Shown: piece after piece, positions 7,127 to 54,993 of the stretch | Numbering within the stretch: the stretch's first letter is position 1 | Layout: every line of letters begins with the position of its first letter | Assembly (NCBI GenBank): GCA_003483925.1 | Contig: DMXL01000007.1 | Location: 30,504 to 94,503, forward strand | Reading direction: 5' to 3' | Source of the DNA: Candidatus Peribacteria bacterium | Lineage (GTDB): Bacteria; Patescibacteriota; Gracilibacteria; Peribacterales; Peribacteraceae | Length of the DNA stretch: 64,000 nt | Program-made: the position numbers and the translations under genes | Notes under the pieces: model-generated | Told to the model about the DNA's origin: nothing | Seen by the model: only the letters and a program-made list of their open reading frames with translations | The model's database searches: none

Positions 7127-10100
7127 GGCACGGATTGCTCGGCAGGAGTGCTTTCAGCGGGAACAACGGGCGGCGGCTCCGCGGAAGGTTCCTGCGGAGG
7201 CGTCTCTTCGGGCGGAGTATCTGCAGCCGATGATGCTTCACTGCTCCCCTGCCCCTCTGCAGATGATGATACCGACGATTGCGCAGCTTCACTGGACGCA
7301 GAACTCACCGCTGAGCTTGCAGCGGAAGATTGCTGCTCGCTGGAAGAGGAAGAACTGGAACTGGACTCAGGAGCTTCGCTGGAAAGAGCGCTTGATTGCT
7401 CGCTGGAAGAGGAAGATGCACTGGAGACCACCGAAGATTCAGACGACGAACTGCTGCCCGTTTCGACCGTGGATCCGCTGCCGGCAGGAGGCTCATCCGG
7501 TGCAACGGTGCTGCCCGTTTCTACGATGGGCTCCGACGGCGGCGGCGTGATGACGATATCCTCCGCTACCACCGGCTGGAAGCCATCCGGCAGGATGAGA
7601 CGCGGGTTGCGCTCCGCGTTCCAGTTAAACTCCATCAGGAGATCCGGATGCGTCCAGACATAGTCCTGATGGTAACGGCTGCAGTTGAACGGCCTACCGT
7701 CACTGTCGAGCGGAACCTGGCCGCGGATGCAGCCGTTCCAGATGGCGCTCGAACTGACCGGAACGCCGAGGCTGTCCACCGGGAATGGCAAGAGCTGCGG
7801 CTCGGGTTGCGAACCCATGCCTTCGGCGGTCTTCGGCGCATTCGTTGCGAGTGCCAACCATGAGAAGAGAATAGGCTGTCGCGCAGGTTCCGCGAGACGG
7901 ATGGAGAAGCCTGTGGAGGTCGCCGTCGTCACGCCGTAGAGGACGGGTGTGTCCGCCGACGCACTCACGACAGGAGTCGCGTAGAACGGACGGGAGAACT
8001 CCACTGTGACGGCTGTTCCGGTTTTCGGGATGAACGCATATCCCGCCTGGTTGCTGCTTACCCGCAGCTCACCCTGTACATCGACCGTTCCGAGGAACTT
8101 CGCAAGACCGCTGATGGTGACGTTTCCGAGAACGGTCAGACCTTTGCGCACCATGATGCTCTCGATATCGACGGCAGCGCCCGTGGATGTATCGATCGCT
8201 TCGGGCGAGAAAGTCTTGCCGTTGAGGAGCAGCGTCCCCTCGACGTTCACGGTGCCGCGCAGCGTGGCACCGGATGTCGTCGATACTGCCGCGGCGTGGA
8301 TGGTCCCGTCGACGTACAGATTCGTGACACGCATCGCTCCGCGGACAGTGAGATCGGAGCGGAAGAACGCCGGACCGGAGACAGTGAACTGATTGGCAAC
8401 CGTCAGAGAGCCGGTCACCGTGAGCGACTGCCGCGTGACGGCATCCGTAACGGCGGAGACGAGCTCCTGTTTGGACGGCACCACCGGCGCCTTGAGCAGA
8501 GTGGAGCCGGTGTAGGCCAGCAGCAGATTCACGAGGCGGGCGGGGTCCAGACGATCGACGGCCCCCGTGACGAGAAGCTGCACTTCATCTTCGATCTTGA
8601 GCTCCGCAACGGCGGTCGCCACGTGCTGCTCCACGGCCTCGACCGTCAGCGAGGAATTCCTGCGGGAAATGAGCACACTCACCGATCCTTGTCCTGCGGA
8701 GAGCGGTTCGAGCGCCACGCCGACGGTCGGCTCCCCGGCCTGCGCCCTGCGCGCGTATCCCGGAATGGATGCGGGTGTGAGAGCATCTCCCGTCCGGATG
8801 GCCAGTCCCTTTTCGACGATCACCTTGGCCGGGATCTGTCCGATGAGACCAACGAGAACGGTGCCCGGCACGGGGATGCCATCGGCACCCGTGATGGTGT
8901 TCCCCACGAAGGCCGGACGGGTGGAGACGATACCGACGACGTTCGGATCGGCGGCATCAGGACATCGGATGACGGCATTCTTGCGATCAAGGTCGATGCA
9001 GACGAGCTCCCCCGGCTTGAGATCCTCCTGCGAAGTGAAGAACCATTCCGCGTAGTCTGCGCCGGTGGATGCGTACGCGTTGTCCGAGTAGACATGACCG
9101 TCCGCCGTGACGCGGAAGGAGATGTCCTCGTCGCCCACGACATCGGAGATAACCTTGAAGACATTCTGGCTTCCCGTCGTCTCCTCCGTATCGATGATGA
9201 GCGACTCGCGGTTGTCGGCATTCAGCGCCTTCAGGTAGAGCTTGTCGTCCGTGGCGAGGGTGGAGCCGGAGGCGCGGTAGAGATTCGTGTCGAAGGTGCC
9301 CTGGTAGCCGAAGAGGAGATGCGGGGCGGAGCCGCTCTTCGCATTCATGTCGATGACCAGCCCGGGGGCGTTGGTCGCTTCGGAGTCGATGAGCATGCCC
9401 GTGCCGTTGCCGTCCATGTTGAGATAGATGGCGCCGGTGCTCGTCGTCTGAGAGGTGGACACGGAGAGCCTGCGACCCGACATGGTGCCCATGACTTCGA
9501 GAGTGGTCTCGGGGGCGGTCGTGCCGATGCCGACCTTGCCGTCGAGAACGGTGGTCCCGGACACGGAGAGATTGCCCCAGATATCCGCACCTTGATCGAC
9601 CCGCAGACTGGATCCCGACATGTTGCCGCGGATTTTGAAGTTTCCGGTCACTGTTCCGCCGCCATTCAAGTAGGCGAGACCGTCAATCGAAAGCGTGCCC
9701 GTGGCGGCGAGGTTGCCGGTGACGTTTGCATTTCCTGTCACGAGGACACCAGCATTGAGGTAGGAAAGTCCATCGATCGAGAGGGTGCCGGATCCGGCGA
9801 TGTTGCCGGAAGTCACTTGGTTCCCCGTGATAACTGCGCCGCCGTTGAGATAGGAGACACCATCAATCGAAAGAGTGCCGGTGCCGGCAATATTCCCGGA
9901 GGTGTTCAGATTTCCCGTGATCACGGTGTTGTTATTCAGATAGATCAATCCGTCGACAGAAAGAGCGCCGGACGAAGTGAGACGATCCTGGGCATGGACG
10001 AGACGGCCGGAAGCCGTGCCCATGATCTCGAGAGAGGAGCCTGTGATGGTCGAAGTGAGTGTGAAGACGGATCCTGCGAGGGTGAGACCCTGGCCGGCGG

Positions 10101-31727: not shown

Positions 31728-31799
31728 ACGCTGATTCTAGCAAGGGATGAGGGGCATGTAGTACGTATTATGAGAGATTGGTTCTCCTGCCCATACCCC
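31728..31799 (-). promoter_or_regulatory. Array junction cassette with extended -10 (TGCTAGAAT) for G1
   Basis: Reverse complement of 31734-31742 is TGCTAGAAT, 6 nt from the ATG. The cassette contains the shared string gaggggcatgtagtacgtattatg. Confidence 0.5.
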
Positions 31800-31910
31800 T
31801 TACTACACCTCTTTGAGGTAGCACTCCTCGCCCATTCGACTCCGTCTCGCTGCGCTCGCCTCCGCTCAGGGTGAATCGTGTTGTAAGCGAAAGAGGAATT
31901 GAGTTGATAT
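31800..31910 (-). repeat. REP-like core plus ghost gene terminus downstream of G2
   Basis: The minus strand after the G2 stop reads ..CACGATTCACCCTGAGCGGAGGCGAGCGCAGCGAGACGGAGTCGA-ATGGGCGAGGAGTGCTACCTCAAAGAGGTGTAGTAA. This gives a degenerate second copy of the family C-terminus (MGEECYLKEV**). Confidence 0.7.
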
Positions 31911-33611
31911 TCAGTATACTTCTTTCAGATAACACGATTCGCAGTACACAATTTCCGGTCTCTCGGGCGCATAGGTCGTCTCCATTGACTTGCCGCACTT
32001 CGCACACGCACGCTTCCAGAGCTTGCGTGGATTGCGTAAGGCCCTGCGTGCGGCATGGCGCACTTCGAAATGCCGGCGCGGGAGAGGCACATGCAGTTTT
32101 CGATAGAGACCAAGCTCGCTCGGCTGGATTTTGAATAGTTTCCCGGATACCTCGCAGCGGATGGCCCACTGGAGCACATCATCGGGAACGGCATCGATCG
32201 TTTCGGGAAGACGATCGCCAGAGACCACCTTTGTGACAGATGGCATTTCCTCGCGCATCTCGCGCCACCGCCATCCGCGTTTCTTCACCTCCTCCTTCGT
32301 GAGCGGATAGTAATCCTGAGCGACGGTTTCGTTGTACGAAAAGGCGGAGAGCGTGGGAGGGAAAAACTCTCCCCATGTCCCCTCTTTTCGCATCTGTTCA
32401 ATAATCTTCGGAGTCAATCGTCCGTATTCTTCTTCCGTGTACTGCGTATTCAGAATGCAGTGCCGCATCTTCTTCAAGCCCACGCAGCCGAAACAATCGT
32501 TGGCACCCTGGAGACAGTAGATGGAGTAGCAGAGATTCGAGACACCGAACGACTGGTAGTAGCAACAAATGAGCCGTTCGACGCCCGCTCCCACGTAGGC
32601 GCAGTTGTACACGAGGTTCATCTTGTCACCCCATGCGTCGACGTCCTGCGCGTCCGATCCGCCCATCATGCAGTTCGTGCAATGACGACAATCGCGCATG
32701 TCCATGCAATCGTAGGAATCATGCATGTTCTTGCAGGAGATGAGGTTGTCGCCCGTTACCTCTTCACTCATCACCGTACGAGTGGCTTTGCGCGGGTATC
32801 TGAGGAAAAGAGCCTCCGCTTGCGCACGCAGCGCCTCCACGCCGGCATGCGTGTGAAGGGCGAATGCCGCCTTCCGGAGAGCGAACTCCTCCTTGGAAAC
32901 CGGCTCATTGAAGATATGATACTCCTTCTGGTGCAGATTCACGCACCCGATGCAGTTCCGGCAACTTGAGCAATCAAGGAGGAACGCGCTATCCGAGCAG
33001 TTGCTACAGAAGCGCGAATACAGCAGATGAAAACACTCCTGGCAGTGGATGCACTCGTAACAGAGCTCGCACTGCTTGAGGCTGTAGAAATCGCAACAAT
33101 CCTTGAGGAGCGCGTAGACTTCGCCATAGTAGGAGTCCTGCGCCTGCTCCCCGTCAAAGATCAGGTAACAGTTCTGCAGACGGTATCCGTCGTGTGCGTA
33201 GTCGCTGTTGATGTTGTCAGTGAGCGCGAGGATGGAGATTTTCGGGACGGCGTACCACAGATCGCGGAATTGATCGAAGAACGGGCGCGAGAAATCGTAC
33301 GCCCTACCGAAGGAAAGAGGATCCCAGTTATCCCCCCACCAGCACGCAGGACAGAAGACGGTAAAGGGGGAATCGGCAGGATAGATGGCGATGATGCGCT
33401 TCTTGCAATGATCGCACACACGCGGGTACAGCGTCCGTTCATTGCGCATGGCCAACCTTCTCTGCTGACGGCAGTCGAGGCAAAAGGCGGGGGGAGGAAC
33501 GGATTCTTTCTTTCTATTGAATACAGGAGAGATCTTGTCATAGAACGCAAGATCATCCTGCGCGATCTCGAAGGCGGAAGCGCACCACGGGTTGGCGCAG
33601 ATTTTCTGCAT
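31911..33611 (-). CDS. Cys-rich array paralogue G2
   Basis: 566 aa. It starts MQKICANPWCASAFEI..PPPAFCLDCRQQRR, contains CFGCVGLKKMRHCILNTQYTEEEY, and ends CAKCGKSMETTYAPERPEIVYCESCYLKEVY*. Confidence 0.85.
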   Translation of the reverse strand: MQKICANPWCASAFEIAQDDLAFYDKISPVFNRKKESVPPPAFCLDCRQQRRLAMRNERTLYPRVCDHCKKRIIAIYPADSPFTVFCPACWWGDNWDPLSFGRAYDFSRPFFDQFRDLWYAVPKISILALTDNINSDYAHDGYRLQNCYLIFDGEQAQDSYYGEVYALLKDCCDFYSLKQCELCYECIHCQECFHLLYSRFCSNCSDSAFLLDCSSCRNCIGCVNLHQKEYHIFNEPVSKEEFALRKAAFALHTHAGVEALRAQAEALFLRYPRKATRTVMSEEVTGDNLISCKNMHDSYDCMDMRDCRHCTNCMMGGSDAQDVDAWGDKMNLVYNCAYVGAGVERLICCYYQSFGVSNLCYSIYCLQGANDCFGCVGLKKMRHCILNTQYTEEEYGRLTPKIIEQMRKEGTWGEFFPPTLSAFSYNETVAQDYYPLTKEEVKKRGWRWREMREEMPSVTKVVSGDRLPETIDAVPDDVLQWAIRCEVSGKLFKIQPSELGLYRKLHVPLPRRHFEVRHAARRALRNPRKLWKRACAKCGKSMETTYAPERPEIVYCESCYLKEVY

Positions 33612-33659: not shown

Positions 33660-33770
33660 TCAATAAACCTCTTTGAGATAGCAATCTTCGCCCATTCGAC
33701 TCCGTCTCGCTGCGCTCGCCTCCGCTCAGGGTGAATCGTGCTGTAAGCGAAAGGGGAATTGGGTTGATAT
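33660..33770 (-). repeat. REP-like core plus ghost gene terminus downstream of G3
   Basis: This is the same 111-nt element as 31800..31910. It ends ..GGAGTCGA-ATGGGCGAAGATTGCTATCTCAAAGAGGTTTATTGA (MGEDCYLKEVY*). Confidence 0.7.
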
Positions 33771-35453
33771 TCAGTATACTTCTTTCAGATAACACGATTC
33801 GCAGTAGACAATTTCCGGCCGATCCGGGGCATAGGTTGTCTCCATCTCCTTGCCGCACTTCGCGCACGCGCGCTTCCAGAGCTTGCGGGGATTCCTTTGA
33901 GCCATCAGCCTGCGATGGCGTTCGTCGGGGTGGAAATGGGAAACGGGAAGCCGCATCTTCCGGTAGAAATCCAGCTCCTGCTTGATGACCCTGAAGGGAC
34001 GCCCCGTGGCTTCGCACTTGATCACCCAGTTCAAGATGTCATCGGGGACATCGTCGATGGAGTCCGGCAGCTTCCGGGCGGGAATCACTTTGTCCGCCTT
34101 CGGCATATCGTCGCGCTCCTCCTTCCATCTCCATCCCCTCTTCTCCGCGTCTTGCTTCGTGAGAGGGAAGAAATCAGAGGCAACGGAGTCGTTGTAGGCG
34201 TAGAGGCTCCTCTCGACGGGAAAGAACTCACCATACTCCTGGGTTTTACGCATATGTTCAATGATCTTCGGTACGAGCGTCTCGTACTCCTCCTTGGAAT
34301 ATTGCTTGTTCAAGATGCAATGTTTTCCTCGCGCATGCAGCCCGTCGCATCCGAAGCAGTCGGATTGGTAGAAGCAGGAGCTTAAGTAGAGGGAGCGCGG
34401 GGAGGCGATGGTGCAATAGCTGAAGCGCGTGAGGTAGTTCTTCTCTCCGCCGGAGGACATCTCGTAACAGAGCTCGATATCCTTGTCGTGTGAGGCCAAG
34501 TCCATGGAATCTTTGACTCCTTCGCACTCGAAGATGTACGAGGAATCCTCGACATTGAAGCAGTCGGAGCAATTCATGGCGTTGCGACAGTTGGAGAGGT
34601 ACGTTCCCGTGGACCCCTCGCAATTGAGCTGGATCTGCGCCCGCTTGGGGACGGTCACGTCGAAGGCGGCGAATTCCGCCTGAAGATCTTCCGGAGAAGT
34701 TTGCCGGTACTGCCGGAGGATGTCCGCATAGGCTTCTTCCGTGAGCTGCTCATTTTTGAAGCAGTACTGCTTGTTACGGATCCCACTGCACATGAAACAG
34801 TCTTTGGCGTTGGTACAATCTCGTAAGTAGTTTGAGAACGAGCATTGACGACAGTTCACGAGGTGATGCGCAGAATTGCAGCCGTCGCAGTTGGTGCTCT
34901 CCGCAACAAGCTCGCATCGGTTGAGCACATTGGAGTTGGCGCAGTCGCGACAGTACTGACTCTTGCGCAGGTAATAGCAATCTTCCACGAAATAACTCCC
35001 CGGACAGAGGTACGCGTTCTTGCTGAAGGCGAGGAGGAGATTATATTCGCAGTTCTCGTTATTCAGCTGGAGAGCGGCCGCCTGCGGCACCGTGTGCTGG
35101 AGCTCCTCGAATTGCTGGAAGAATGGCTTGGAGAAATCGAAATCTCTGCCGTAGTCCATCGGGTCCCAACGATCCGACCACCAGCAATCCGTGCAGTACA
35201 CCGTGTACGGGCTCTCGGGAGCGAAGGAGGAAATGGTCGTTTTCTTGCAGAGACCGCAGGTATGCCTGTAAATGCTATGTTCATTGCGAAACGCGTGCCT
35301 CCGTTGCAGCCGGCAATCGGGACAGAGGGTAGGAGGCGGAATAAGGAATTTCTTCCTGCCGAAGGCCGGTGAAATTTTCTCGTAAAACTTCAAGTCATCA
35401 TCGGTGACCTTGAAGGGGGCACGACACCAAGAGTTCAAGCAAATCTTCTGCAT
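33771..35453 (-). CDS. Cys-rich array paralogue G3
   Basis: 560 aa. It starts MQKICLNSWCRAPFKV, contains CFGCDGLHARGKHCILNKQYSKEEYE, and ends ..HFHPDERHRR..CAKCGKEMETTYAPDRPEIVYCESCYLKEVY*. Confidence 0.85.
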   Translation of the reverse strand: MQKICLNSWCRAPFKVTDDDLKFYEKISPAFGRKKFLIPPPTLCPDCRLQRRHAFRNEHSIYRHTCGLCKKTTISSFAPESPYTVYCTDCWWSDRWDPMDYGRDFDFSKPFFQQFEELQHTVPQAAALQLNNENCEYNLLLAFSKNAYLCPGSYFVEDCYYLRKSQYCRDCANSNVLNRCELVAESTNCDGCNSAHHLVNCRQCSFSNYLRDCTNAKDCFMCSGIRNKQYCFKNEQLTEEAYADILRQYRQTSPEDLQAEFAAFDVTVPKRAQIQLNCEGSTGTYLSNCRNAMNCSDCFNVEDSSYIFECEGVKDSMDLASHDKDIELCYEMSSGGEKNYLTRFSYCTIASPRSLYLSSCFYQSDCFGCDGLHARGKHCILNKQYSKEEYETLVPKIIEHMRKTQEYGEFFPVERSLYAYNDSVASDFFPLTKQDAEKRGWRWKEERDDMPKADKVIPARKLPDSIDDVPDDILNWVIKCEATGRPFRVIKQELDFYRKMRLPVSHFHPDERHRRLMAQRNPRKLWKRACAKCGKEMETTYAPDRPEIVYCESCYLKEVY

Positions 35454-35551
35454 ACGCTGATTCTAGCAAGGAATGAGGGGCATGTAGTACGTATTATGTA
35501 TTATGGGATATGGGATTGGTTCTCCTGCCCATACCCCTTACTACATACCCC
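35454..35551 (-). promoter_or_regulatory. Array junction cassette: structured spacer plus extended -10 (TGCTAGAAT) for G3
   Basis: The -10 is the reverse complement of 35460-35468, 6 nt from the ATG. A 14-bp inverted repeat pairs aggggcatgtagta (35476-35489) with tactacatacccct (35539-35552). It encloses an inner gggatatggg/cccatacccc hairpin. Confidence 0.55.
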
Positions 35552-37231: not shown

Positions 37232-37329
37232 ACGCTGATTCTAGCAAGGGACGAGGGGCATGTAGTACGTATTATGTATTATGGGATATGGGATTGGTTC
37301 TCCTGCCCATACCCCTTACTACATACCCC
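37232..37329 (-). promoter_or_regulatory. Array junction cassette plus extended -10 (TGCTAGAAT) for G4
   Basis: Nearly identical to 35454..35551. The -10 is the reverse complement of 37238-37246. Confidence 0.55.
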
Positions 37330-40693: not shown

Positions 40694-40775
40694 ACTCTGA
40701 TCCTAGCAAGGAATGAGGGGCATGTAGTACGTATTATGTATTGGAATATGGGATTGGTTCTCCTGCCCATACCCC
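40694..40775 (-). promoter_or_regulatory. Array junction cassette (short variant) plus extended -10 (TGCTAGGAT) for G6
   Basis: Reverse complement of 40700-40708 is TGCTAGGAT, 6 nt from the ATG. The shared gaggggcatgtagtacgtattatg string is present. Confidence 0.5.
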
Positions 40776-42615: not shown

Positions 42616-43410
42616 TCAGGTGCCGACACCGGAATCCCAGAGCTGTTCGAACTGCTTGCGATGGACATTCACGAGCTCCGGATGACGGATGATCACGACC
42701 CGCGGGTTGTCCGCATCGCAGATGAAGTGCGCGACGTGATCCTTCGTGAAACCGAGATAGTCCTTCGCCACGGGAATCGAATCGACCAGCCGGGTGGTGC
42801 GCAACTCCTGCGAGTCCCGCTTCGCGAAGGTCTGCGATTCGGGGGAGTGCGTATTGAAAACGCGACAGAACATGTTTCTGCTGAATCTCTTATGCCGGAA
42901 CCCAAGTTCCTCCGGCGCCTCGTCGGACATCCCTGCGACTTTCCAGTAGTTCTGCATGGACCCCATGCAGAGGAACTCGTCACCACAGAGATCGGGGAGC
43001 TTCAGATACTCCTCCCGGAAGGCATCCAGCCCTTCATGCACTTCTATGGGTTCCGTTCCGTCCCGCGCATCCTCCGAGCTGGCATCGATGAACGGCAAGA
43101 AGTGATCCAGGCGTTTGAGGGCCAGTTGCAGGCGCCGTACCTCCCGTTCCTTCGTCGCGAGCTTTTGGATAAGCGCATCGAGCGTCAGCGGCGCGTAGAC
43201 GGATAACTTCTGATTCATCTTCAGTGCCTGCACCAGTCCGCGATCCTGCAAACGCTTCATCGTTCGATAGGCGGTCACGAGATGCATGCTACTCGCGGCA
43301 GAGAGCTCTCCGATCGTTGCGCGGTGGAGCTTCATGAGGAGGAGATACAGTGTAATCTCCTCTCCGCGCAGACCGGCCAAGCTCAAGAGATGTTGGATCC
43401 TGCGACGCAT
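42616..43410 (-). CDS. TrmB-like winged-helix transcriptional regulator embedded in the array
   Basis: The ORF track gives 42616..43488. The ATG at 43408-43410 gives MRRRIQHLLSLAGLRGEEITLYLLLMKLHRATIGELSAASSMHLVTAYRTMKRLQDRGLV (TrmB-type wHTH). A coiled linker and a C-terminal domain follow. Confidence 0.7.
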   Translation of the reverse strand: MRRRIQHLLSLAGLRGEEITLYLLLMKLHRATIGELSAASSMHLVTAYRTMKRLQDRGLVQALKMNQKLSVYAPLTLDALIQKLATKEREVRRLQLALKRLDHFLPFIDASSEDARDGTEPIEVHEGLDAFREEYLKLPDLCGDEFLCMGSMQNYWKVAGMSDEAPEELGFRHKRFSRNMFCRVFNTHSPESQTFAKRDSQELRTTRLVDSIPVAKDYLGFTKDHVAHFICDADNPRVVIIRHPELVNVHRKQFEQLWDSGVGT

Positions 43411-45158: not shown

Positions 45159-45240
45159 ACTCTGATTCTAGCAAGGAATGAGGGGCATGTAGTACGTATT
45201 ATGTATGGGGATATGGGATTGGTTCTCCTGCCCATACCCC
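45159..45240 (-). promoter_or_regulatory. Array junction cassette (short variant) plus extended -10 (TGCTAGAAT) for G8
   Basis: Reverse complement of 45165-45173 is TGCTAGAAT, 6 nt from the GTG. Confidence 0.5.
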
Positions 45241-46938: not shown

Positions 46939-47005
46939 GTGATCAGTATACTTCCTTCAAATAACACTCCTCGCCCATTCGACTTCGCTCAGAGTGAAAA
47001 TTGCT
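46939..47005 (-). repeat. REP-like core plus ghost terminus between G10 and G9
   Basis: The minus strand reads AGCAATTTTCACTCTGAGCGAAGTCGA-ATGGGCGAGGAGTGTTATTTGAAGGAAGTATACTGA-TCAC-ATG(G9). The ghost MGEECYLKEVY* is in frame with G10 behind its TGA. Confidence 0.7.
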
Positions 47006-48694
47006 TCAGTAAACCTCTTGAAGATAGCAATTTTCGCAATAGACGATTTCCGGCCGCTCGGGCGCGTAGGTCGTCTCAATTCCCTTTTTACACTTCGCAC
47101 AATTGCGCTTCCAAAGCTTGTAAGGGTTCCTGCGCATCAATCTCTGTCTGTGTCGCTCATCGGGATGGAAGTGCGGCAAGGGAAGCTGCATCTTCCGATA
47201 GAAGTCCATTTCCTGTTTGACGATCTGGAACGGGCGACCCGTTGCTTCACACTCGATGGGTTGGTTGAGCATATCGTCTGAAACATTGGAGATGTCCTCC
47301 GGCAGCTTATGAGCGGAAATATTCTTCCCCGTCTTGGGAGCCTCTTCGACATCGTTGCGCCAACGCCACCCCCCTCTTTCCGCAGATTCTTGCGTGAGCG
47401 GGCAATATTCCTGGGCAATGGTCTCGTTGTACGCAAATGGACTGAGGCTTGCCGGCAAGTACTCGCCCCATTCGCCGTTCGCCCGCATGGATGCGATAAT
47501 TTTCGCCACCAGCGTCTCGTACTCATCCTTCGTATACTGCTTGTTCAAAATGCAGTACCGTTTGTTCTTCAGAGCTACGCAGCCGAAGATGTCGTTGTTG
47601 TGATGACACTCCAGCGAATAGTACACATCGGATCCGTACCAAACGTAGAAACAGGCCATCGACGATTCCAGATCCACCGTGGAACAGACGCTGTAGCAAT
47701 ACCTGTCCCCGTCCGGAGCGCAGAAGGCGCAGTCCTGCGTGCAGAGAGTTTTCGGCGAGAAGTAAATGTATTTGCAGTCTTCGCATTTCTTGCAGTCAAA
47801 GGCATTGAAGCAGTTTTTGGAATTGTAGACACCATCCCCCGTGCAGTTCTCGGAAGCATAAATATTCGCATGCGGGTGGGGCAGTGATGCCTTGAGTTCC
47901 GAAAGCTTTTTCTGAAGACGACCGATGCTGGCATGGGAAAGCGAGGAGAATTCCCGGGAAAGACGCCCGTACTCTTCCGCTGAATATGATTGGTTGAATA
48001 TACAGTACTGCTTCGCCCTCAAGCCGAAACATCCGATGCAATCCGTGCAACCAAGACAGTCTTCGATCATCGTGCAATTGCGGCAATTCCGGCAATTCAC
48101 GAAAAATCGACATCCGTAGCACTGCTCGGAAGCCACACCCTCGTAACAGAGCTCGGACGAATACACCGACAGACAGTCGACGCAGTCTTTGCAGTACACC
48201 ACGAATTTCCCATAGAGGCAGTCCTCATCGTCTCCTGCGCCGAATACCAGATAGCAATTCTTCTGGTTCAGGGCGTAGTTCGTGTAACTGCTGTTCTCGA
48301 TATTCGTGTTGTAGAGCGCGACATGGGGCACTTCCGCGTACAGCTCCTTGAGCTGCTGCCTCAGCGTTCTGGAAAAGTCGTACGCACGACCGTAGGCGAG
48401 CGCATCCCAGCGGTCACCCCACCATGCATCGCGATCGTAGACTTTGTATGGCATATCCGGAGCATAGATGGAGAGCATCGGTTTCCCTGTCAGATCGCAG
48501 GTGCGGTGGTACAGCTTCCTCTCGTTCCGGAAAGAAAGACGCAATTGCTGCCGGCATTCCGGGCACAGAGTCGGCGGCGGAATGGGCTCCTTCTTCCCGT
48601 TGAATACGGGTGAAACCCGCTCGTAGAACTCAAGATCGCCTTCGGTAATCTCGAAGGGCTGCTTGCACCAAACGTTCGCGCAGGTTTTCTGCAT
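47006..48694 (-). CDS. Cys-rich array paralogue G10
   Basis: 562 aa. It starts MQKTCANVWCKQPFEITEGDL and ends ..CAKCKKGIETTYAPERPEIVYCENCYLQEVY*. Confidence 0.85.
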   Translation of the reverse strand: MQKTCANVWCKQPFEITEGDLEFYERVSPVFNGKKEPIPPPTLCPECRQQLRLSFRNERKLYHRTCDLTGKPMLSIYAPDMPYKVYDRDAWWGDRWDALAYGRAYDFSRTLRQQLKELYAEVPHVALYNTNIENSSYTNYALNQKNCYLVFGAGDDEDCLYGKFVVYCKDCVDCLSVYSSELCYEGVASEQCYGCRFFVNCRNCRNCTMIEDCLGCTDCIGCFGLRAKQYCIFNQSYSAEEYGRLSREFSSLSHASIGRLQKKLSELKASLPHPHANIYASENCTGDGVYNSKNCFNAFDCKKCEDCKYIYFSPKTLCTQDCAFCAPDGDRYCYSVCSTVDLESSMACFYVWYGSDVYYSLECHHNNDIFGCVALKNKRYCILNKQYTKDEYETLVAKIIASMRANGEWGEYLPASLSPFAYNETIAQEYCPLTQESAERGGWRWRNDVEEAPKTGKNISAHKLPEDISNVSDDMLNQPIECEATGRPFQIVKQEMDFYRKMQLPLPHFHPDERHRQRLMRRNPYKLWKRNCAKCKKGIETTYAPERPEIVYCENCYLQEVY

Positions 48695-48763
48695 GGACGA
48701 TCAGTATACCTCTTTCAAAGAGCATTCCTCGCCCATTCGACTTCGCTCAGAGTGAAAATTGCT
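48695..48763 (-). repeat. REP-like core plus ghost terminus between G11 and G10
   Basis: The first 40 nt are the same as in 46939..47005. The ghost MGEECSLKEVY* ends 6 nt before the G10 ATG and is in frame behind the G11 TGA. Confidence 0.7.
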
Positions 48764-50428
48764 TCAGTAAACCTCTTGAAGATAGCAATTTTCGCAATAG
48801 ACGGTCTCCGGCCGCTCCGGCGCGTAGGTCGTCTCGATGGGCTTCTTGCACTTCATGCACGTGCGCTTCCAGAGATGACGGGGGTTGCGGAGTGCGAAAC
48901 GCTCCCTCTGCCTCTGCATGAAACACTTGCGAGGCAAAGGCAGTTTCATCGTACGATAAAACGTAAGTTCTTTCGGAATAATTTTGTAAAGCTTGCCGGA
49001 AGATTCGCAGCGCAAAATCTTGTCGCAAATACCTTCATCTGTGTCTCGGATATCGTCAGGCACAGGCACAATTGGACCGAGGTAATTCTGCTCCTCTGAT
49101 CCTTCCTCTTCCTCCTTCCACCTCCATCCTTTCTTCAACACCTGTTCCCTCGTTAACGGGAAGTACTCCTGTGCGATGGTTTCGTTGTAGCCGAACGGTG
49201 AGAGCTCCCGTGGGAAGAATTGCCCCCACTCCTTGGTTTTCCGCATGTGCTCGATGATCCTCGGGACAATCTGTTCGTACTTCTCCTTCGTGTACTGCTT
49301 ATTCAAGATGCAGTAACGCTTCTGCTTGAGACTGACGCAGCCGAAACAATCTTTACAACCATGGCAAGTGTCGCAGTAGGAGAGATTTGCATTGTCATTC
49401 TGACACGCATGACAGGCGATGAGCCGGTAGTTCGGGCCGATGGTGAGGCAGTTGTAGCAAAGCTCGGCGCGCGCGCCCGCGTTGATCCCGCAAAAATTGC
49501 AATCGAGGGAATCGGAGAAGCTGTCGAGCGTGGCGCTGTACAACGTATCTTCGCAGTTCTTCAGATCGTACCCGTCGTAGATGTTCCTGCAATTATAGAG
49601 GTAATCCCCGGTCACCTTCTCACAATTGAAGCCATGGTAATGCTTCACGATTTCCTTACCGATCAGGCTCTGTACCCGCTTCCTTGCCAGCTCCACGGTT
49701 CGTATGTTTCCCGTATTCAGCTCGGCGATTTTTTGCCGATACTCCTCTTTGGAATGGGGCTCGTTAAAAATGTGGCACTCCTTGTTCTTCAGTCCCACGC
49801 ATCCGAAGCAATCGTGGCATCCCACGCAATGCACGAGAAACATCGACGCAGAGCAATTGTCACAGTCACGTGAAAAGCTGAGTGTGTGGCACTGGACGCA
49901 ATCGATGCACTCGTAGCAATATTCCGATCGATAGGTGTAGAGGCAATCGTAGCAATTCTGGGATTGCCAAACGATATGACCGTACATGCAGTCTTCGTTT
50001 CCGACGTTCCCGAAGACAAGATAGCAATTGCGGCTGCCATTCGACATGTTGCAATAGTCGCAATTCTCGCAGTTGACGTTCATGAACGCGATGCGCGGAA
50101 CCGTGCGATGGAGGACAGCCATTTGCTCGAAGAATGGACGTGAGAAATCCATGTCGATTCCGAAGCTGAGACCATCCCATTTGTCGCTCCACCATTCCTG
50201 CAACCCGTAAACGGGAAAGGGGGTTCCGGTGTCATAGACCGACAGCATTTTCTTTCCGGTGAGATCGCACGTGCGGTGATAGAGGTGAAAGAAATTGCGG
50301 AACATGAGCCGCCGCTGGCGGCGGCAGGCCGGGCATTCCACCGGCTCCGGCACGTCCAGCACACGATAGAGCTCCTGCTCCTTGGGGAGGAGAGGGAACG
50401 CCGCGCTGCAATACGTGCATGTCGGCAT
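48764..50428 (-). CDS. Cys-rich array paralogue G11
   Basis: 554 aa. It starts MPTCTYCSAAFPLLPKEQELY..CPACRRQRR and ends ..CMKCKKPIETTYAPERPETVYCENCYLQEVY*. Confidence 0.85.
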   Translation of the reverse strand: MPTCTYCSAAFPLLPKEQELYRVLDVPEPVECPACRRQRRLMFRNFFHLYHRTCDLTGKKMLSVYDTGTPFPVYGLQEWWSDKWDGLSFGIDMDFSRPFFEQMAVLHRTVPRIAFMNVNCENCDYCNMSNGSRNCYLVFGNVGNEDCMYGHIVWQSQNCYDCLYTYRSEYCYECIDCVQCHTLSFSRDCDNCSASMFLVHCVGCHDCFGCVGLKNKECHIFNEPHSKEEYRQKIAELNTGNIRTVELARKRVQSLIGKEIVKHYHGFNCEKVTGDYLYNCRNIYDGYDLKNCEDTLYSATLDSFSDSLDCNFCGINAGARAELCYNCLTIGPNYRLIACHACQNDNANLSYCDTCHGCKDCFGCVSLKQKRYCILNKQYTKEKYEQIVPRIIEHMRKTKEWGQFFPRELSPFGYNETIAQEYFPLTREQVLKKGWRWKEEEEGSEEQNYLGPIVPVPDDIRDTDEGICDKILRCESSGKLYKIIPKELTFYRTMKLPLPRKCFMQRQRERFALRNPRHLWKRTCMKCKKPIETTYAPERPETVYCENCYLQEVY

Positions 50429-50429
50429 A

Positions 50430-50534
50430 TCAATAAACTGTGGAGAGGTAACACTCTTCGCCCTTCGACTCGTTGCTTCGCTCCTCGCTCAGGGTGAATC
50501 TTGCGGTGCCGTTGGTGATCGGTTGGAGTGCCAT
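50430..50534 (-). CDS. Possible bridging small ORF (34 aa) between G12 and G11
   Basis: It encodes MALQPITNGTARFTLSEERSNESKGEECYLSTVY*. Its ATG lies 1 nt after the G12 TGA, and its TGA lies 1 nt before the G11 ATG. It covers the REP-like core and the ghost terminus. Confidence 0.3.
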   Translation of the reverse strand: MALQPITNGTARFTLSEERSNESKGEECYLSTVY

Positions 50535-50535
50535 C

Positions 50536-52194
50536 TCAATAAACAGATGAAAGATAGCAAGATTCGCAATACACGGTCTCCGGCCGCTCCGGCGCATAGG
50601 TCGTCTCTATCCCCTTCCCGCACTTCATGCACGTGCGCTTCCAGAGATGACGGGGATTACGCAGTGCCATGCGCTCGAGCATCCGCTGTTCGAAGCACTT
50701 CTTGGGAGGAGGAATCCCCATCTGACGATAGAAGGCGAACTCCTTCGGAATGATCTTGTACGGCTTCCCGCTGACAGTGCAGCGCAGAATCTTTCCGCAG
50801 AGGGACTCGTCCGATTGCTCGATCGTGTCCGGCACGGTGACTTCCGGTCCGAGATACGACTGCCCCTCGCCATCCGCGCACCACTTCCAACCGCGTTTCT
50901 CGGCCTCTTTTTGAGAGAGAGGATAGTAATCCTGCGCCATCGTTTCGTTGTATCCGAAGGGTGAGTACTTGGTGGGGAAAAATTCCCCCCACTCCTGCGT
51001 CTGCCTCATGTGGGCAATGATGCGCGGCACGAGCTCTTCGTATTCCTCTTTTGAGTACTGCTTATTGAGAATGCAGTACTTCTTGTGTTTCAAACCGCTG
51101 CACCCGAAGCAGTGCTCGCAATGGAAGCAGAGACTGCAGTAGAGAATGTCATGATCGAACCAGCAAATATCATTGAAGCAGTGCATCGTATTCGCTTCGC
51201 TCCCCACGGCTTCGTAGACCAATTCGGAACGGTCGTCATTATTCACGTCTACGGCATCTTTCATGGATGTCGCATTCGCCACGTACGCGCAATCCTGCAC
51301 GCCGATGACTTCGTAGCAGACACGCGCATTCCGCGAATTGATGATGGCATTGCCCGTGCAGTTTTCCGTATTGATCGCATCCATGTATTTGCGCGGCATT
51401 TCGCGCTTGCGCTCCTCGAAATTCTTGCGCACAAGCTTCATGTCCTGCCGAAGCTGCCGTACGAGTTCCTCGTATTTTCCTTTCGTGTACCGGACATTCC
51501 CGACGCAATACTGTGCGTTCTGGAGGTTGTAGCACGCGAAGCAATCGCGGCACCCTCGCAAGTTGTAGCCGAGAAAGCAGTCGAAACAGTTGGAACAATT
51601 CTGCAGGTACTGACAGTGATAACAGCGATCGGAATCAACGACTTCGTAACAGAGTTCGCAACTCTCGACATTGGCGCAGTCGCAGATGCTCCGCGACATT
51701 TGCGAGCGGTTGCAGTAAAAACTGTCCTCGCATCCATAGCACGTGAAAAGGAGGTAACTGTTCTTGTTCCGCAGCGAAAAATTGCAGTACTCGCTGTTTT
51801 CGTGGTCTTTGTTGATCAAACTGATCCTCGGTACCTTGAGGAAGAGTTCATGAAACTGCCCGAAGAACGGCCGCGAAAAATCGAAGCTTCTCCCGTACGC
51901 AAGCGGATCCCATTGATCACCCCAAAAAGCATCCTGGTCATACACTTTCTGCGGACTCCCCGTGGTATACATGGAGATGATCTGCCGGCCGGTGAGATCG
52001 CATTTGCGATGATAGAGAGAGCGCTCGTTGCGAAACGCCAGCCTCCTCTGCTGCCGACAATCCGGGCACAGAGTCGGCGGCGGGATGAGCTCCTTCTTTC
52101 CAGCGAAAACGGGCGATACCTTTTCGTAGAACGCGAGATCGTCGGGGGTGATCTCGAAGGATTGCCGGCATTGCGTACAGGTTTTTTGCATCAT
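50536..52194 (-). CDS. Cys-rich array paralogue G12
   Basis: The ORF track gives 50536..52215. Family alignment favours (M)MQKTCTQCRQSFEITPDDL at 52194 or 52191. The start overlaps the G13 stop (ATGATG over TGA). It ends ..CMKCGKGIETTYAPERPETVYCESCYLSSVY*. Confidence 0.8.
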   Translation of the reverse strand: MMQKTCTQCRQSFEITPDDLAFYEKVSPVFAGKKELIPPPTLCPDCRQQRRLAFRNERSLYHRKCDLTGRQIISMYTTGSPQKVYDQDAFWGDQWDPLAYGRSFDFSRPFFGQFHELFLKVPRISLINKDHENSEYCNFSLRNKNSYLLFTCYGCEDSFYCNRSQMSRSICDCANVESCELCYEVVDSDRCYHCQYLQNCSNCFDCFLGYNLRGCRDCFACYNLQNAQYCVGNVRYTKGKYEELVRQLRQDMKLVRKNFEERKREMPRKYMDAINTENCTGNAIINSRNARVCYEVIGVQDCAYVANATSMKDAVDVNNDDRSELVYEAVGSEANTMHCFNDICWFDHDILYCSLCFHCEHCFGCSGLKHKKYCILNKQYSKEEYEELVPRIIAHMRQTQEWGEFFPTKYSPFGYNETMAQDYYPLSQKEAEKRGWKWCADGEGQSYLGPEVTVPDTIEQSDESLCGKILRCTVSGKPYKIIPKEFAFYRQMGIPPPKKCFEQRMLERMALRNPRHLWKRTCMKCGKGIETTYAPERPETVYCESCYLSSVY

Positions 52195-53921
52195 ATGAGC
52201 GATTCCTGATAACACTTCTCGCAGTATATTTTCTCAGGACGATCCGGCGCGTAAGTGGTCCGGATCGCAATGCCGCATGCATCACACATGCGTTCGCAGA
52301 GAACGCGTTTGTTGCGCATCGCCATCTGTTTCCGGTAACGCGCGAAGAAGCTGGTCCGGGGCAGCGGCACATGTAACTGCTTATGGAATTTGAGTTCCTG
52401 CGGAATAATTTTGTATTGTTTTCCGCTCTCGGAGCAGGTCAGTATTTTCCTGCAAATGTCATCGGTTGCGTCGTCAATGCTGTCCGGAATCTCCACCTTC
52501 GGACCCAGGTATTGATCCTTCTTCTCTACCTCATCAAACCATCGCCAACCGCGCGCAAGAACCTCCTTTTTGGTGAGCGGGAAGTAATCTTGAGCCAGTG
52601 TCTCGTTGTAGGCAAAACACGATGTCTCCGTGGGGAAGAATTCGCCCCATTCGTGCGTTGATCGCATGTGCTCGATGATCTTCGGCACGAGTTTCTCGTA
52701 CTCCTCCTTGGTGTATTGCTTGTTCAAAATGCAGTATTCCTTGCGTCTTAAGCCGACGCAGGCAAAACAGTGCTTCGAATGGTGACACAGCTGGCAATAC
52801 ATCATATCGCTCATGCTGGCGAGCGTATGGTTGCAGAAGTAGCAGCTATGCAGCTCATATCCCGCGACGGAGCACTCGTAGAGTCTCTCCGCTTCGCCGC
52901 ATTCGTGAATGTCCATACAGTTTTTTAACGGCATGAATCCCTGGAAGACGTGCCTGCAGTCCCACAGATCTTCGCTGTCAAAGCAGTTGTAGGCGTTCTT
53001 GCAGTTCACCAAATAGTCACCAACGACATCTTCGTTCTGCACTCCGTGCATATACTTCTGCGGGAACTCCAACCTGAGCGTGTCGAAACGCCGGCGCGCG
53101 GACTCCACGACCGATTGGCTTCCGAGCATGGCGCGGAACGATTCAAATTCCTCTTTGGATACCTGCTTGTTCTCAATGAAGTACTCCTTGTTTTTCAGAT
53201 TGCTGCACATCAGACATTTTTTGCAGCCCGTGCAGTTTTTGAGGAACATCGATTCCGCGCAATTGTCGCAGTCCTGAAGGTACGACGAACCGTAGCATTT
53301 CACGCAATCGATGCATTCGTAGCAGAGTTCGGATTTCCTCGTGCGATAGCACCCAACGCAGTTTGCGCACTGGTTTATGCTGTAGCTGAAATAGCAGTCC
53401 CGGTTTTGGTCGGAATCAAAGATCAGATAGCAATCCTTGTTCTTCCCGGCGTAATTCGTGTAGTCGCAGTTTTCGTCGAACTCGTAGCCCGTCATCAGGT
53501 TCGGCCGCGGCACGGCATCGAACAGTTCTTTCCACTGTTCGAAAAACGGCCGGGGGAAATCGAAATCTCTCTGGTATGCATGCGGATCCCACTTGTCGCT
53601 GTACCAGTCCTCTTGGGCGTAGACCCTGTAAGGAGAGGATGGATGGATATTGGAAATGATCTGCGCTCCCGAAAGATCGCACTTCCTCTCGTAGAGGTTT
53701 ACGTGATTCACGTGCGATTGCCTTCGCCGCAATCTGCAATCGGGACAGAGCGTGGGAGGAGGGAGACTCATCGTTTTCCCTCCGATCTCGGGGGAAAGTT
53801 CACGCAACATGGCCAGATCTTCATCCGAGATTTCGAATGCCGATGAGCAGTGACGGCAATTTACAGACACAAAAAAAATGGTGAAGATACTAATGAGGAT
53901 CGGATTTTCGCCAAGGGTCAT
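52191..53921 (-). CDS. Cys-rich array paralogue G13 (first gene of the array, atypical N- and C-termini)
   Basis: 576 aa. MTLGENPILISIFTIFFVSV precedes the family start NCRHCSSAFEISDEDL. It ends ..CDACGIAIRTTYAPDRPEKIYCEKCYQESLI*. An internal GTG (VSVNC) is an alternative start. Confidence 0.75.
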   Translation of the reverse strand: MTLGENPILISIFTIFFVSVNCRHCSSAFEISDEDLAMLRELSPEIGGKTMSLPPPTLCPDCRLRRRQSHVNHVNLYERKCDLSGAQIISNIHPSSPYRVYAQEDWYSDKWDPHAYQRDFDFPRPFFEQWKELFDAVPRPNLMTGYEFDENCDYTNYAGKNKDCYLIFDSDQNRDCYFSYSINQCANCVGCYRTRKSELCYECIDCVKCYGSSYLQDCDNCAESMFLKNCTGCKKCLMCSNLKNKEYFIENKQVSKEEFESFRAMLGSQSVVESARRRFDTLRLEFPQKYMHGVQNEDVVGDYLVNCKNAYNCFDSEDLWDCRHVFQGFMPLKNCMDIHECGEAERLYECSVAGYELHSCYFCNHTLASMSDMMYCQLCHHSKHCFACVGLRRKEYCILNKQYTKEEYEKLVPKIIEHMRSTHEWGEFFPTETSCFAYNETLAQDYFPLTKKEVLARGWRWFDEVEKKDQYLGPKVEIPDSIDDATDDICRKILTCSESGKQYKIIPQELKFHKQLHVPLPRTSFFARYRKQMAMRNKRVLCERMCDACGIAIRTTYAPDRPEKIYCEKCYQESLI

Positions 53922-54885: not shown

Positions 54886-54993
54886 CCCCCTCTCCCTCAC
54901 CCTCCCCCTATGGGGGAGGGAAACGTATGATCCTCTCGTCAGAGTCGGTGCCTCTGTTCCCTCTCCCGACGGGAGAGGGTAAGGGTGAGGGGG
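54886..54993. repeat. C/G-run hairpin repeat cluster
   Basis: It contains the hairpins CCCTCCCCC-tat-GGGGGAGGG (54900-54920) and CCCTCTCCC-gac-GGGAGAGGG (54959-54979). There is also a long-range ccctcaccct/agggtgaggg pairing. It translates as SPSPSPYGGG..PTGEGKGEG in a spurious ORF. Confidence 0.65.

Follow-up and report, generated by a model that had tools for sequence, protein, structure and literature searches.

Displaced gene ends beside REP-like hairpin inserts in tandem paralogues of a Peribacteria genome

Introduction

On entering icd of E. coli, the e14 prophage supplies a synonymously different 3' end that leaves the gene intact, while the displaced end survives downstream under the name icdC (Hill et al. 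1989, as cited in PMC13626634). According to PMC13626634, the two icd end copies recombine when e14 is lost. Here we describe a 64,000-nt stretch of DNA from a Peribacteria genome (hereafter the window; contig C1, positions 30504-94503), in which genes of a tandem paralogous family end within a short insert and are followed by a second copy of the gene end, termed the ghost. As in the e14-icd case, the insert lies in the 3' coding end, a replacement end keeps the open reading frame (ORF) and the original end is left downstream, which makes e14 the closest documented analogue in outcome. Unlike e14, a prophage of 15 kb that brings its own site-specific integrase and uses one attachment site, the insert measures 63-125 nt, is non-coding, occupies many paralogues per genome and has apparently been moved by homology.

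The core of the insert resembles repetitive extragenic palindromic (REP) sequences, bacterial interspersed mosaic elements and REP doublets forming hairpins in being a short, partly conserved imperfect palindrome, in having dozens of copies scattered mainly between genes and often immediately behind a stop codon, and in its variable stems, which remain paired. It differs from them in that no gene for a REP-associated tyrosine transposase (RAYT) and, among the copies listed, no GTAG-type head were seen, and in that 10 of the ~32 cores are flanked by a recoded gene-end duplicate. A literature search found no description of such duplicates flanking REPs, and we know of no earlier report of one. 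Like homing group I introns and inteins, the insert occupies one conserved coding position, exists as empty and filled alleles, appears to spread to homologous sites that are empty, has donor flanks that are co-converted over tens of bases and leaves the gene functional; unlike them, it has no endonuclease gene and is not spliced, function being kept by the replacement end and stop that it carries. The palindromic elements of Rickettsia are likewise small repeats within coding regions of genes that survive their presence. Those elements are translated within the protein, whereas in the present genes the coding sequence stops short of the hairpin, leaving the old end untranslated or read only as a mini-ORF. 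In the pilE/pilS and vls cassette systems, short tracts are copied between diverged paralogues, giving mosaic genes with sharp identity boundaries. The genes described here show the same short-tract copying and the same boundaries, except that the tract includes a non-homologous insert, made copyable by the two versions of the gene end that bracket it. The insert combines an e14-like outcome, a REP-like sequence type and homing-like dynamics, and is a full member of none of these classes.

Results

Anatomy of the ghost-bearing junctions

The window belongs to a 1.38-Mb genome (G000; 57% G+C, 99.9% complete) from what we take to be a tiny groundwater bacterium of the Peribacteria, within the Candidate Phyla Radiation (CPR). 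It contains 13 paralogous genes encoding proteins of ~560 aa (G1-G13), arranged head-to-tail on the minus strand (30054-53921; coordinates refer to the window unless a contig or locus is named, and junction features lie on the minus strand). Eight more paralogues (H1-H8) make up a second array, on the plus strand and outside the window (C1:106426-120348), and the family reaches ~20 copies in many related genomes. Family proteins share the C-terminal consensus C-E-E-C-Y-L-K-E-V-Y, and weak PF23477 matches point to a probable treble-clef zinc finger at the end of each.

An earlier note on this DNA had reported that at five junctions (G2/G1, G3/G2, G10/G9, G11/G10 and G12/G11) the real stop is followed by a REP-like core and a synonymously diverged copy of the last codons, and alignment of the real and ghost ends confirms this arrangement. 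In order, 3' of the real stop come 11-41 nt of spacer, C(C/T)CTGAGCG, a loop of variable sequence, GTCGAA(T)G, and a ten-codon ghost with its own stop. The two copies differ at 9-11 positions per 30-33 nt, with 3-6 codons per junction changed synonymously and 2-4 non-synonymously. Two further ghost junctions, both outside the window, follow H4 and H5, and at least 23 are present in 15 related genomes; a set of 30 junctions is analysed below.

Across this set, alignment shows an insert of 60-125 nt made up of four parts: a replacement copy of the last 10-11 codons with a stop, which reads C-E-[S/N/T]-C-Y-L-x-x-V-Y in all 30 insert-bearing genes; a spacer of 0-30 nt (the left arm not included); a left arm of 11 nt, reverse-complementary to the C-E-x-C codons of the replacement; and the core (CCCTGAGC...GTCGAAGGG), the conserved part of a REP-like hairpin that recurs across the genome. 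The right arm of the core, GGGCGA, is fused to the old gene end, with the first Cys codon changed from TGY to GGY. The insertion point, between T and GYGARGA, is identical in all 30 junctions, which span 14 genera. Apart from the end of the host gene, no ORF was found in the insert, and neither an element-encoded site-specific recombinase with att sites nor a homing endonuclease. The 39-41-nt spacers have no second occurrence anywhere in the genome.

Empty and filled orthologous sites

In a genome of the same genus (G001) the genes form a syntenic array (G13'-G12'-G11'-G10'-G8'...G7'-G6'-G5'-x-G4'-G3') and are 74-96% identical in amino-acid sequence to those of G000. In G001, G11' (86% amino-acid identity) has an uninterrupted, insert-free end (GTCTATT followed by GTGAGGAGTGCTACCTGAAGGAGGTATACTGA CTTCCC ATG), which reads GTC TAT TGT GAG GAG TGC TAC CTG AAG GAG GTA TAC TGA, then CTTCCC and ATG. 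In G000, the corresponding G11 end reads GTC TAT T(GCGAAAATTGC...GTCGAATGG)GC GAG GAA TGC TCT TTG AAA GAG GTA TAC TGA, then TCGTCC and ATG. The difference between the two is an exact 63-nt insertion (48733-48795) consisting of replacement codons, stop, left arm and core. The real end of G11 in G000 now occupies 48764-48796, and the G11/G10 ghost (GEECSLKEVY and stop, 48701-48733), with the G10 start 6 nt downstream, aligns with the real end of G11' together with its 6-nt tight junction. Because the empty and filled orthologues differ by a discrete 63-nt insert and the ghost aligns with the real end in G001, the ghost is shown, at the level of sequence, to be the displaced former functional 3' end of the upstream paralogue, which now ends inside the insert.

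Other sites differ between the two genomes in the same manner. G8 is empty in G000 and filled in G001, and G7 is empty in G000 and holds two stacked inserts in G001, giving three successive ends, while G10 and G12 are filled in both. The G2/G1 ghost, with the sequence downstream of it, matches the real end plus an 82-98-nt intergenic element of G4, G5, G7 and G9. The G12/G11 ghost, which had been noted to copy the unusual ending of its gene (LSSVY in the real end, LSTVY in the ghost), is a real match, and only 3 synonymous sites separate it from real, REP-less CEECYLSTVY ends in another relative (G013).

From such resemblance, the earlier note had derived each ghost from its own gene, which holds for the tail, as the G11 ghost and the end of its G001 orthologue demonstrate, and fails for the first four codons (GGY GAR GAR TGY), which move with the insert. 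The ghost of G8' in G001 begins GAG GAG where the real end of G8 in G000 has GAT AGT; therefore the first ghost codons arrive with the insert and only the tail is the recipient's. In other genomes, real and ghost endings often differ (e.g. LSSVY/LKAVY and LQEVY/LSTVS).

At G10/G9, the functional, insert-borne end of G10 (47006-47038; TGC GAA AAT TGC TAT CTT CAA GAG GTT TAC TGA, encoding CENCYLQEVY) is the same as that of G11. A segment X within its C-E-N-C codons (CGAAAATTGCT, 47026-47036) is reverse-complementary to the left arm L (AGCAATTTTCA, 46995-47005), which directly follows the stop and is itself the spacer. The core (CTCTGAGCGAAGTCGAATG, 46976-46994) is of the short-loop form, with an extra T that makes an ATG, and the ghost (46943-46975) reads GGC GAG GAG TGT TAT TTG AAG GAA GTA TAC TGA, encoding GEECYLKEVY. 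Ghost and ATG (46976-46978) together constitute a mini-ORF, with the G9 start 4 nt downstream; the orthologous junction of G001 also bears a ghost. The coordinates given for the mini-ORFs in the earlier note proved exact.

The G12/G11 insert (50463-50568) comprises the real end CESCYLSSVY with its stop (50536-50568), 41 nt of spacer with the left arm GCAAGATTCA at its end, and a core of the long-loop form that lacks the extra T; its ghost (GEECYLSTVY and stop, 50430-50462) lies 1 nt before the G11 start. The G3/G2 insert (33693-33803) comprises the real end CESCYLKEVY with its stop (33771-33803), 39 nt of spacer that include the left arm (G/A)CACGATTCA, and a core of 39 nt, and is followed by the ghost GEDCYLKEVY with its stop (33660-33692). 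At G2/G1, the insert (31833-31943; real end CESCYLKEVY with its stop at 31911-31943, then spacer, left arm and core) differs from that at G3/G2 in 3 positions, and the ghost (GEECYLKEV and stop, TAT having become TAG; 31803-31832) continues directly into the 82-98-nt intergenic element. Read-through of TGA, or an alternative genetic code, was considered as a separate possibility and rejected: only at G10/G9 and G11/G10 does the ghost share the frame of the real stop, at G12/G11 the frames differ, and at G2/G1 and G3/G2 another in-frame stop separates the two.

Unrelated intergenic inserts in relatives also leave ghost ends, of other lengths (L013 ~8791-8923, at G7' of G001; L028 ~3041 in G015; L015 ~5166 in G001; L016 ~17477 and L017 ~2387 in G023). 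One, a GC(C/G)CTACGGCCGGCAGGTG... element, has a ghost of 14-16 codons; another, a CATCCGGC...GCCGGATG hairpin, has the ghost AAAGAGGTATACTGA; and a third, a GGATGAATGATGAAT... repeat, has the ghost GAAGAGGTGTACTGA, either intact or decayed.

Mosaic identity between paralogues and taxonomic distribution

The bodies of G10 and G11 are 35-65% identical in 60-nt windows, and their last windows are 80-96% identical. Within this region ~77 consecutive bases are identical; they begin at GTCTATT, take in the replacement codons, stop, left arm and core, and reach as far as GGGCGAGGA, beyond which the remaining ghost has 5 differences in 25 nt. The same mosaic pattern is shown by G2/G3 and H4/H5. Overall, the last ~50-130 nt plus the core are 95-100% identical between neighbouring paralogues with bodies that are 35-65% identical, and identical inserts are found with different ghost tails and different upstream sequence in G001 (at G8' and G10'), G133 (three copies) and G017 (two copies). 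Because paralogues that are ~50% identical share inserts that are 95-100% identical, we infer that the insert spreads between them by gene conversion or template switching, that is, by recombination rather than through an enzyme of the element.

Within the taxonomic family of the source genome, a pattern joining the core to GGGYRARGANTGYT had 37 matches, spread over 16 of 121 genomes (14 of 84 genera), and its reversed version had 1 match, so that the pattern exceeds chance. The junction pattern had no match in ~178 genomes of the other families of the class, several of which have the protein family.

Covariation between the left arm and the functional codons

The left arm, which occupies the 11 nt immediately preceding CCCTGAG, is reverse-complementary to the C-E-x-C codons of the functional end and not to the ghost, and it changes with the codons (AAT TGC with GCAATT, TCG TGT T with AACACGA, TCT TGC with GCAAGA, TCC TGC with GCAGGA, and TGT or TGC with ...TTCA or ...TTCG, respectively). 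A fixed-frame alignment of 29 junctions shows the helix between functional codons and left arm (X:L) to be 89% paired, with 6 of its 11 pairs changed on both sides. It has 48 compensatory cells against 19.9 +/- 3.4 in shuffles, and a covariation score of 0.331 against 0.162; neither value was reached in 500 shuffles, a significance that is overstated by the kinship of the sequences. Slid controls scored far lower, and the same test applied to a helix between left arm and ghost gave no covariation (0.141 versus 0.140). A compensatory change is also seen between orthologues of the G12 junction, where TGC faces GCA in G000 and TGT faces ACA in G001.

When folded with RNAfold, the X:L hairpin was dominant in 19 of the 30 junctions, its loop enclosing the last codons and the real stop, and elsewhere the left arm paired with the right arm. 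G.T and C.A mismatches are equally frequent in the helix (11 versus 11), and the hairpin is therefore not assignable to one strand, or to RNA as opposed to DNA. Several distinct codon variants, each with a matching arm, would be hard to obtain without constraint or templated correction. An origin of the left arm as the remnant of a convergent paralogue was rejected, as the sequence past the arm does not continue as an inverted gene end.

A dispersed palindrome with ghosts at gene starts

The core belongs to a repeat of the form (G)TCACCCTGAGC-N-GTCGAAGGG(T/C)GA(C), which is closed by CCC...GGG. Searching the genome for the motif gave 32 matches on five contigs (C1, C3, C5, C6 and C7), with 0-1 in reversed-sequence controls. 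In canonical copies the stem extends over 8-14 bp that differ between copies yet are still paired, and most copies lie outside genes, as befits a short imperfect palindrome with many dispersed copies. The listed copies start with (G)TCA/CCCTGAG; no GTAG-type tetranucleotide occurs among them, no full consensus of this head having been built. A search for RAYT/Y1 HUH transposases (PF01797) had no match in the genome (99.94% complete in this test) and was positive in 6 of 14 control genomes. An Rfam scan of window positions 28000-56000 gave no match at any junction at E<=1. Hammerhead and other ribozyme cores were rejected by eye, CUGAGCGA being incompatible with CUGANGA. A nucleotide test for triplication by direct copying (T, T', core, T) at all cores found none, and was too strict even for known cases.

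A peptide-level scan of all cores in the genome, however, revealed three further ghosts, all of them at gene starts and with the gene oriented opposite to the core. At rpsL (C5:336556-336710, locus L059/L069, outside the window), the ghost ATG CCA ACG ATC AAC CAG CTC follows the native Shine-Dalgarno (SD) sequence, and the functional start, ATG CCA ACG ATT AAC CAA TTG, lies beyond the core and a 34-nt spacer. At a nucleotidyltransferase-like gene (MHMRAFILAGGFATRLWPL...; C6:7755-8027, locus L083), the ghost start ATG CGT GCC TTC ATC CTC is fused to the right arm. At a GT4-like gene (MNILFTRFPLESRFGG...; C6:282245-282534, locus L077), the ghost start is ATG AAT ATT CTT TTC ACC, in which TTCACCC doubles as a core arm.

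G001 is empty at rpsL and at the nucleotidyltransferase-like gene, and in both cases the G000 ghost and its upstream region match G001. The functional copies are recoded at synonymous sites only within the duplicated 21-27 nt: in rpsL there are 4 changes in 21 nt followed by 2 in the next 39, and in the nucleotidyltransferase-like gene 6 synonymous changes in 7 codons relative to the empty site of G001, followed by 0 in the next 21 nt. The recoded version of rpsL is the one carried by other genera. With these three, all ten ghost-bearing cores of the genome have the ghost adjoining the right arm of the core. The one-sided position of the ghost and the recoding in single-copy genes therefore keep a more specific mechanism as a live rival to copying between paralogues. 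This could be a one-ended mobile element, or homologous recombination that is one-sided and joined at the arm by microhomology.

Discussion

Probable copying of the insert from paralogue to paralogue

The reading we favour, with a probability of about 0.62, is that an insert of ~63-125 nt displaced the end of each gene and was copied from paralogue to paralogue by homology, with the mini-ORF as a by-product. When the insert arrived, the old end would have stayed unchanged downstream, along with its stop and its distance from the following start. Copying would depend on homology on both sides, provided on the left by the conserved 3' coding region and on the right by the resemblance of the insert's ghost to the real end of any member; bracketed by two versions of one gene end, the insert would therefore be copyable into any member of the family. 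The synonymous divergence between real and ghost ends would arise because both were functional ends, kept under purifying selection in separate gene lineages until the insert arrived. Transfer between related genomes probably takes place by the same homology-dependent copying, and an insert could be lost by recombination between its two end copies. Among the possibilities raised in the earlier note, a REP-type element that rebuilds the terminus it disrupts is the one best supported by the evidence. A model in which a deleted paralogue accounts for every junction was rejected, since the same two breakpoints would be needed many times; it may hold for the single founding event.

Were this reading correct, a non-coding palindromic repeat can occupy the coding end of a gene without destroying the gene, by bringing a replacement end. 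It would account for puzzling annotation in CPR genomes, namely duplicated and synonymously recoded ends, spurious mini-ORFs and extended ORF calls, and would provide a marker of very recent recombination between paralogues that bears on the remodelling of large tandem families in reduced genomes.

Several points weigh against copying by homology alone. The right-hand homology amounts to only ~33 nt at ~80% identity, which is short for RecA-type recombination. The fixed insertion point (30/30), together with the ghost lying at the right arm in 10/10 cores, three unrelated single-copy genes included, suggests a process of greater specificity than passive conversion. Both rpsL and the nucleotidyltransferase-like gene lack a paralogous donor, yet their dense recoding is confined to the duplicated 21-27 nt. 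The left arm covaries with the functional codons, which implies some constraint, or templated correction, for which conversion has no need. Finally, the founding duplication falls outside this account.

Possible more specific mechanisms

Another reading, which we put forward as tentative and on balance rather doubtful, is that Peribacteraceae have a protein-less hairpin that replaces gene ends. Its right arm would be a defined end, the recoded gene end would always lie beyond the left arm, the first or last 6-11 codons of a gene would be invaded without inactivation, the native end would stay behind as the ghost, and the X:L hairpin would be part of the mechanism or of its stabilisation. Such a hairpin would cover both the ends of the zinc-finger paralogues and the starts of rpsL, the nucleotidyltransferase-like gene and the GT4-like gene, and, if real, it would represent a new way for small elements to move and for coding sequence to tolerate their insertion.

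Somewhat less probable still is that the insert is an active site-specific or one-ended mobile element, with an enzyme (e.g. an HUH-type nickase that cuts at the base of the right arm, or a recombinase) that sets its right end. The leaving strand would consist of core, left arm, spacer and gene end, would join the target by arm microhomology and would be resolved by gene-side homology, leaving the ghost as a remnant of the target. A constant insertion point in 30 junctions of 14 genera is what such an enzyme would produce, but the genome has no Y1/RAYT transposase, though six control genomes do match, and the insert codes for nothing. The 63-nt insertion is discrete and flanked by GCGA direct repeats, and the constant right-arm position of the ghost, rpsL and the two other genes included, comes with microhomology at the joint (GCGA, TTCACCC and CGCC); the first ghost codons nevertheless move with the insert, so that the right boundary is not a clean cut. 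Similarly, identity between copies in G133, G017 and G001 starts only ~20 nt upstream of the replacement codons, as expected of an element, whereas the co-converted tracts of ~50-130 nt upstream at G10/G11 and G2/G3 fit plain recombination. Pairing between guide and target is known from the ends of IS200/IS605 elements, and the complementarity of the left arm to target-like codons resembles it. If the rpsL and other single-copy cases reflect a dedicated mechanism, this would be a new behaviour for a mobile element, and its built-in recoding would be relevant to repeat stability and translational coupling.

The mini-ORF as a possible expression device

It is improbable, in our view, that the ghost has been kept by selection as an expression device, either with its K-E-V codons (AAGGAGGT) serving as an SD sequence or with the mini-ORF M-G-E-E-C-Y-L-K-E-V-Y relaying ribosomes to the next start. 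The mini-ORF is in frame and begins 27 nt past the real stop at G10/G9 and G11/G10, as a relay would have it. In the earlier note the core was taken to end in the ATG-GGC start of the mini-ORF. The GGGCGA read as G-E is the right arm of the stem, and the ATG depends on one extra, bulged T (GTCGAA-T-GGG) that is present in 19 of the 30 junctions and absent in 11. Two of these 11, G12/G11 and a junction in G023, have a tight downstream start, and no significant association was found between presence of the ATG and a tight downstream start. The mini-ORF stops at or next to a downstream start in ~8 of the 30 junctions (5 of them in the source genome), the remainder being followed by repeats or long spacers; in relatives, most ghosts precede other repeats or promoter-like spacers rather than a start.

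The geometry of tight junctions gives the SD version of this idea its best argument. In the second array, gene ends reading ...CTG AAG GAG GTA TAC TGA are followed 6 nt later by the next start, and four ghosts of the source genome keep exactly such an arrangement. The distance from GGAGG to the start is 13-14 nt, however, and AAGGAG is not significantly enriched in tight junctions (5/9, versus 13/42 for K-E-V ends that are not tight), many of which lack any SD sequence (e.g. TAATG overlaps). By analogy, the ghost starts at rpsL and the GT4-like gene open short ORFs that run through the core and end near the real ATG, 10 nt past it in rpsL and with a TGA overlapping it (ATGA) in the GT4-like gene. 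Constraint is also suggested by the G10/G9 ghosts of G000 and G001, whose 8 differences are all synonymous or stop-to-stop.

Defects are nonetheless present among the ghosts, comprising two premature stops (G2/G1 and G043), one rewritten tail (G109), two changes of Y to S and one of Y to F, against only 2 deviant real ends. Because the ATG is missing in 11/30 junctions and the ghosts are partly decayed, a functional peptide is unlikely. A ribosome-relay role is conceivable at some junctions on this sequence evidence, and the coupling function raised in the earlier note retains slight support at best. The mini-ORF is most likely a by-product of the right arm and the old reading frame.

The view preferred in the earlier note, that the ghosts are neutral scars of repeated duplication of the tandem unit with a breakpoint ~30 nt before the stop, is the least credible of all and can be set aside: tandem arrays are certainly built by duplication and neighbouring junction pairs are near-identical (95-100%), but any fixed, clean breakpoint would regenerate complete genes without ghosts, neighbours that share a junction are only 35-65% identical in their bodies, the orthologous empty site differs by 63 nt and not by a unit, and the same junction occurs at the same point in 14 genera beside unrelated downstream sequence.

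Other features of the arrays

A conserved intergenic element of 82-98 nt, GGGGTATG(TAGTAAGGGGTATG)GGCAGGAGAACC...TACTACATGCCCCTC...TTGCTAGAATCAG(C/A)GT, whose ends form an inverted repeat, lies directly before the ATG at 35454-35551, 37232-37329, 40694-40775 and 45159-45240, and is also present behind the ghost at 31728-31802. Because it contains a -10-like box (TGnTAGAAT) only 7 nt from the start codon, it suggests leaderless transcripts.

The array is interrupted between G8 and G7 by a gene for a TrmB-type transcriptional regulator on the minus strand (42616-43410; PF01978, E = 2e-8). G12 is listed with a GTG start that gives a 25-nt overlap with G13 (52191-52215); its true start is likely the ATG in ATATGATGCAG, which overlaps the G13 stop (ATGA) and makes this a tight, coupled junction without a ghost. 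In the second array, a run of N, possibly a scaffold gap, interrupts the H4 gene (C1 ~113.1-113.3 kb, outside the window). Beyond G13, a long nested G/C-rich hairpin (CCCCCTCTCCCTCACCCTCCCCC...GGGTAAGGGTGAGGGGG) at 54887-54993 gave spurious, sub-threshold matches to microRNA families on both strands and is probably another Peribacteria hairpin repeat.

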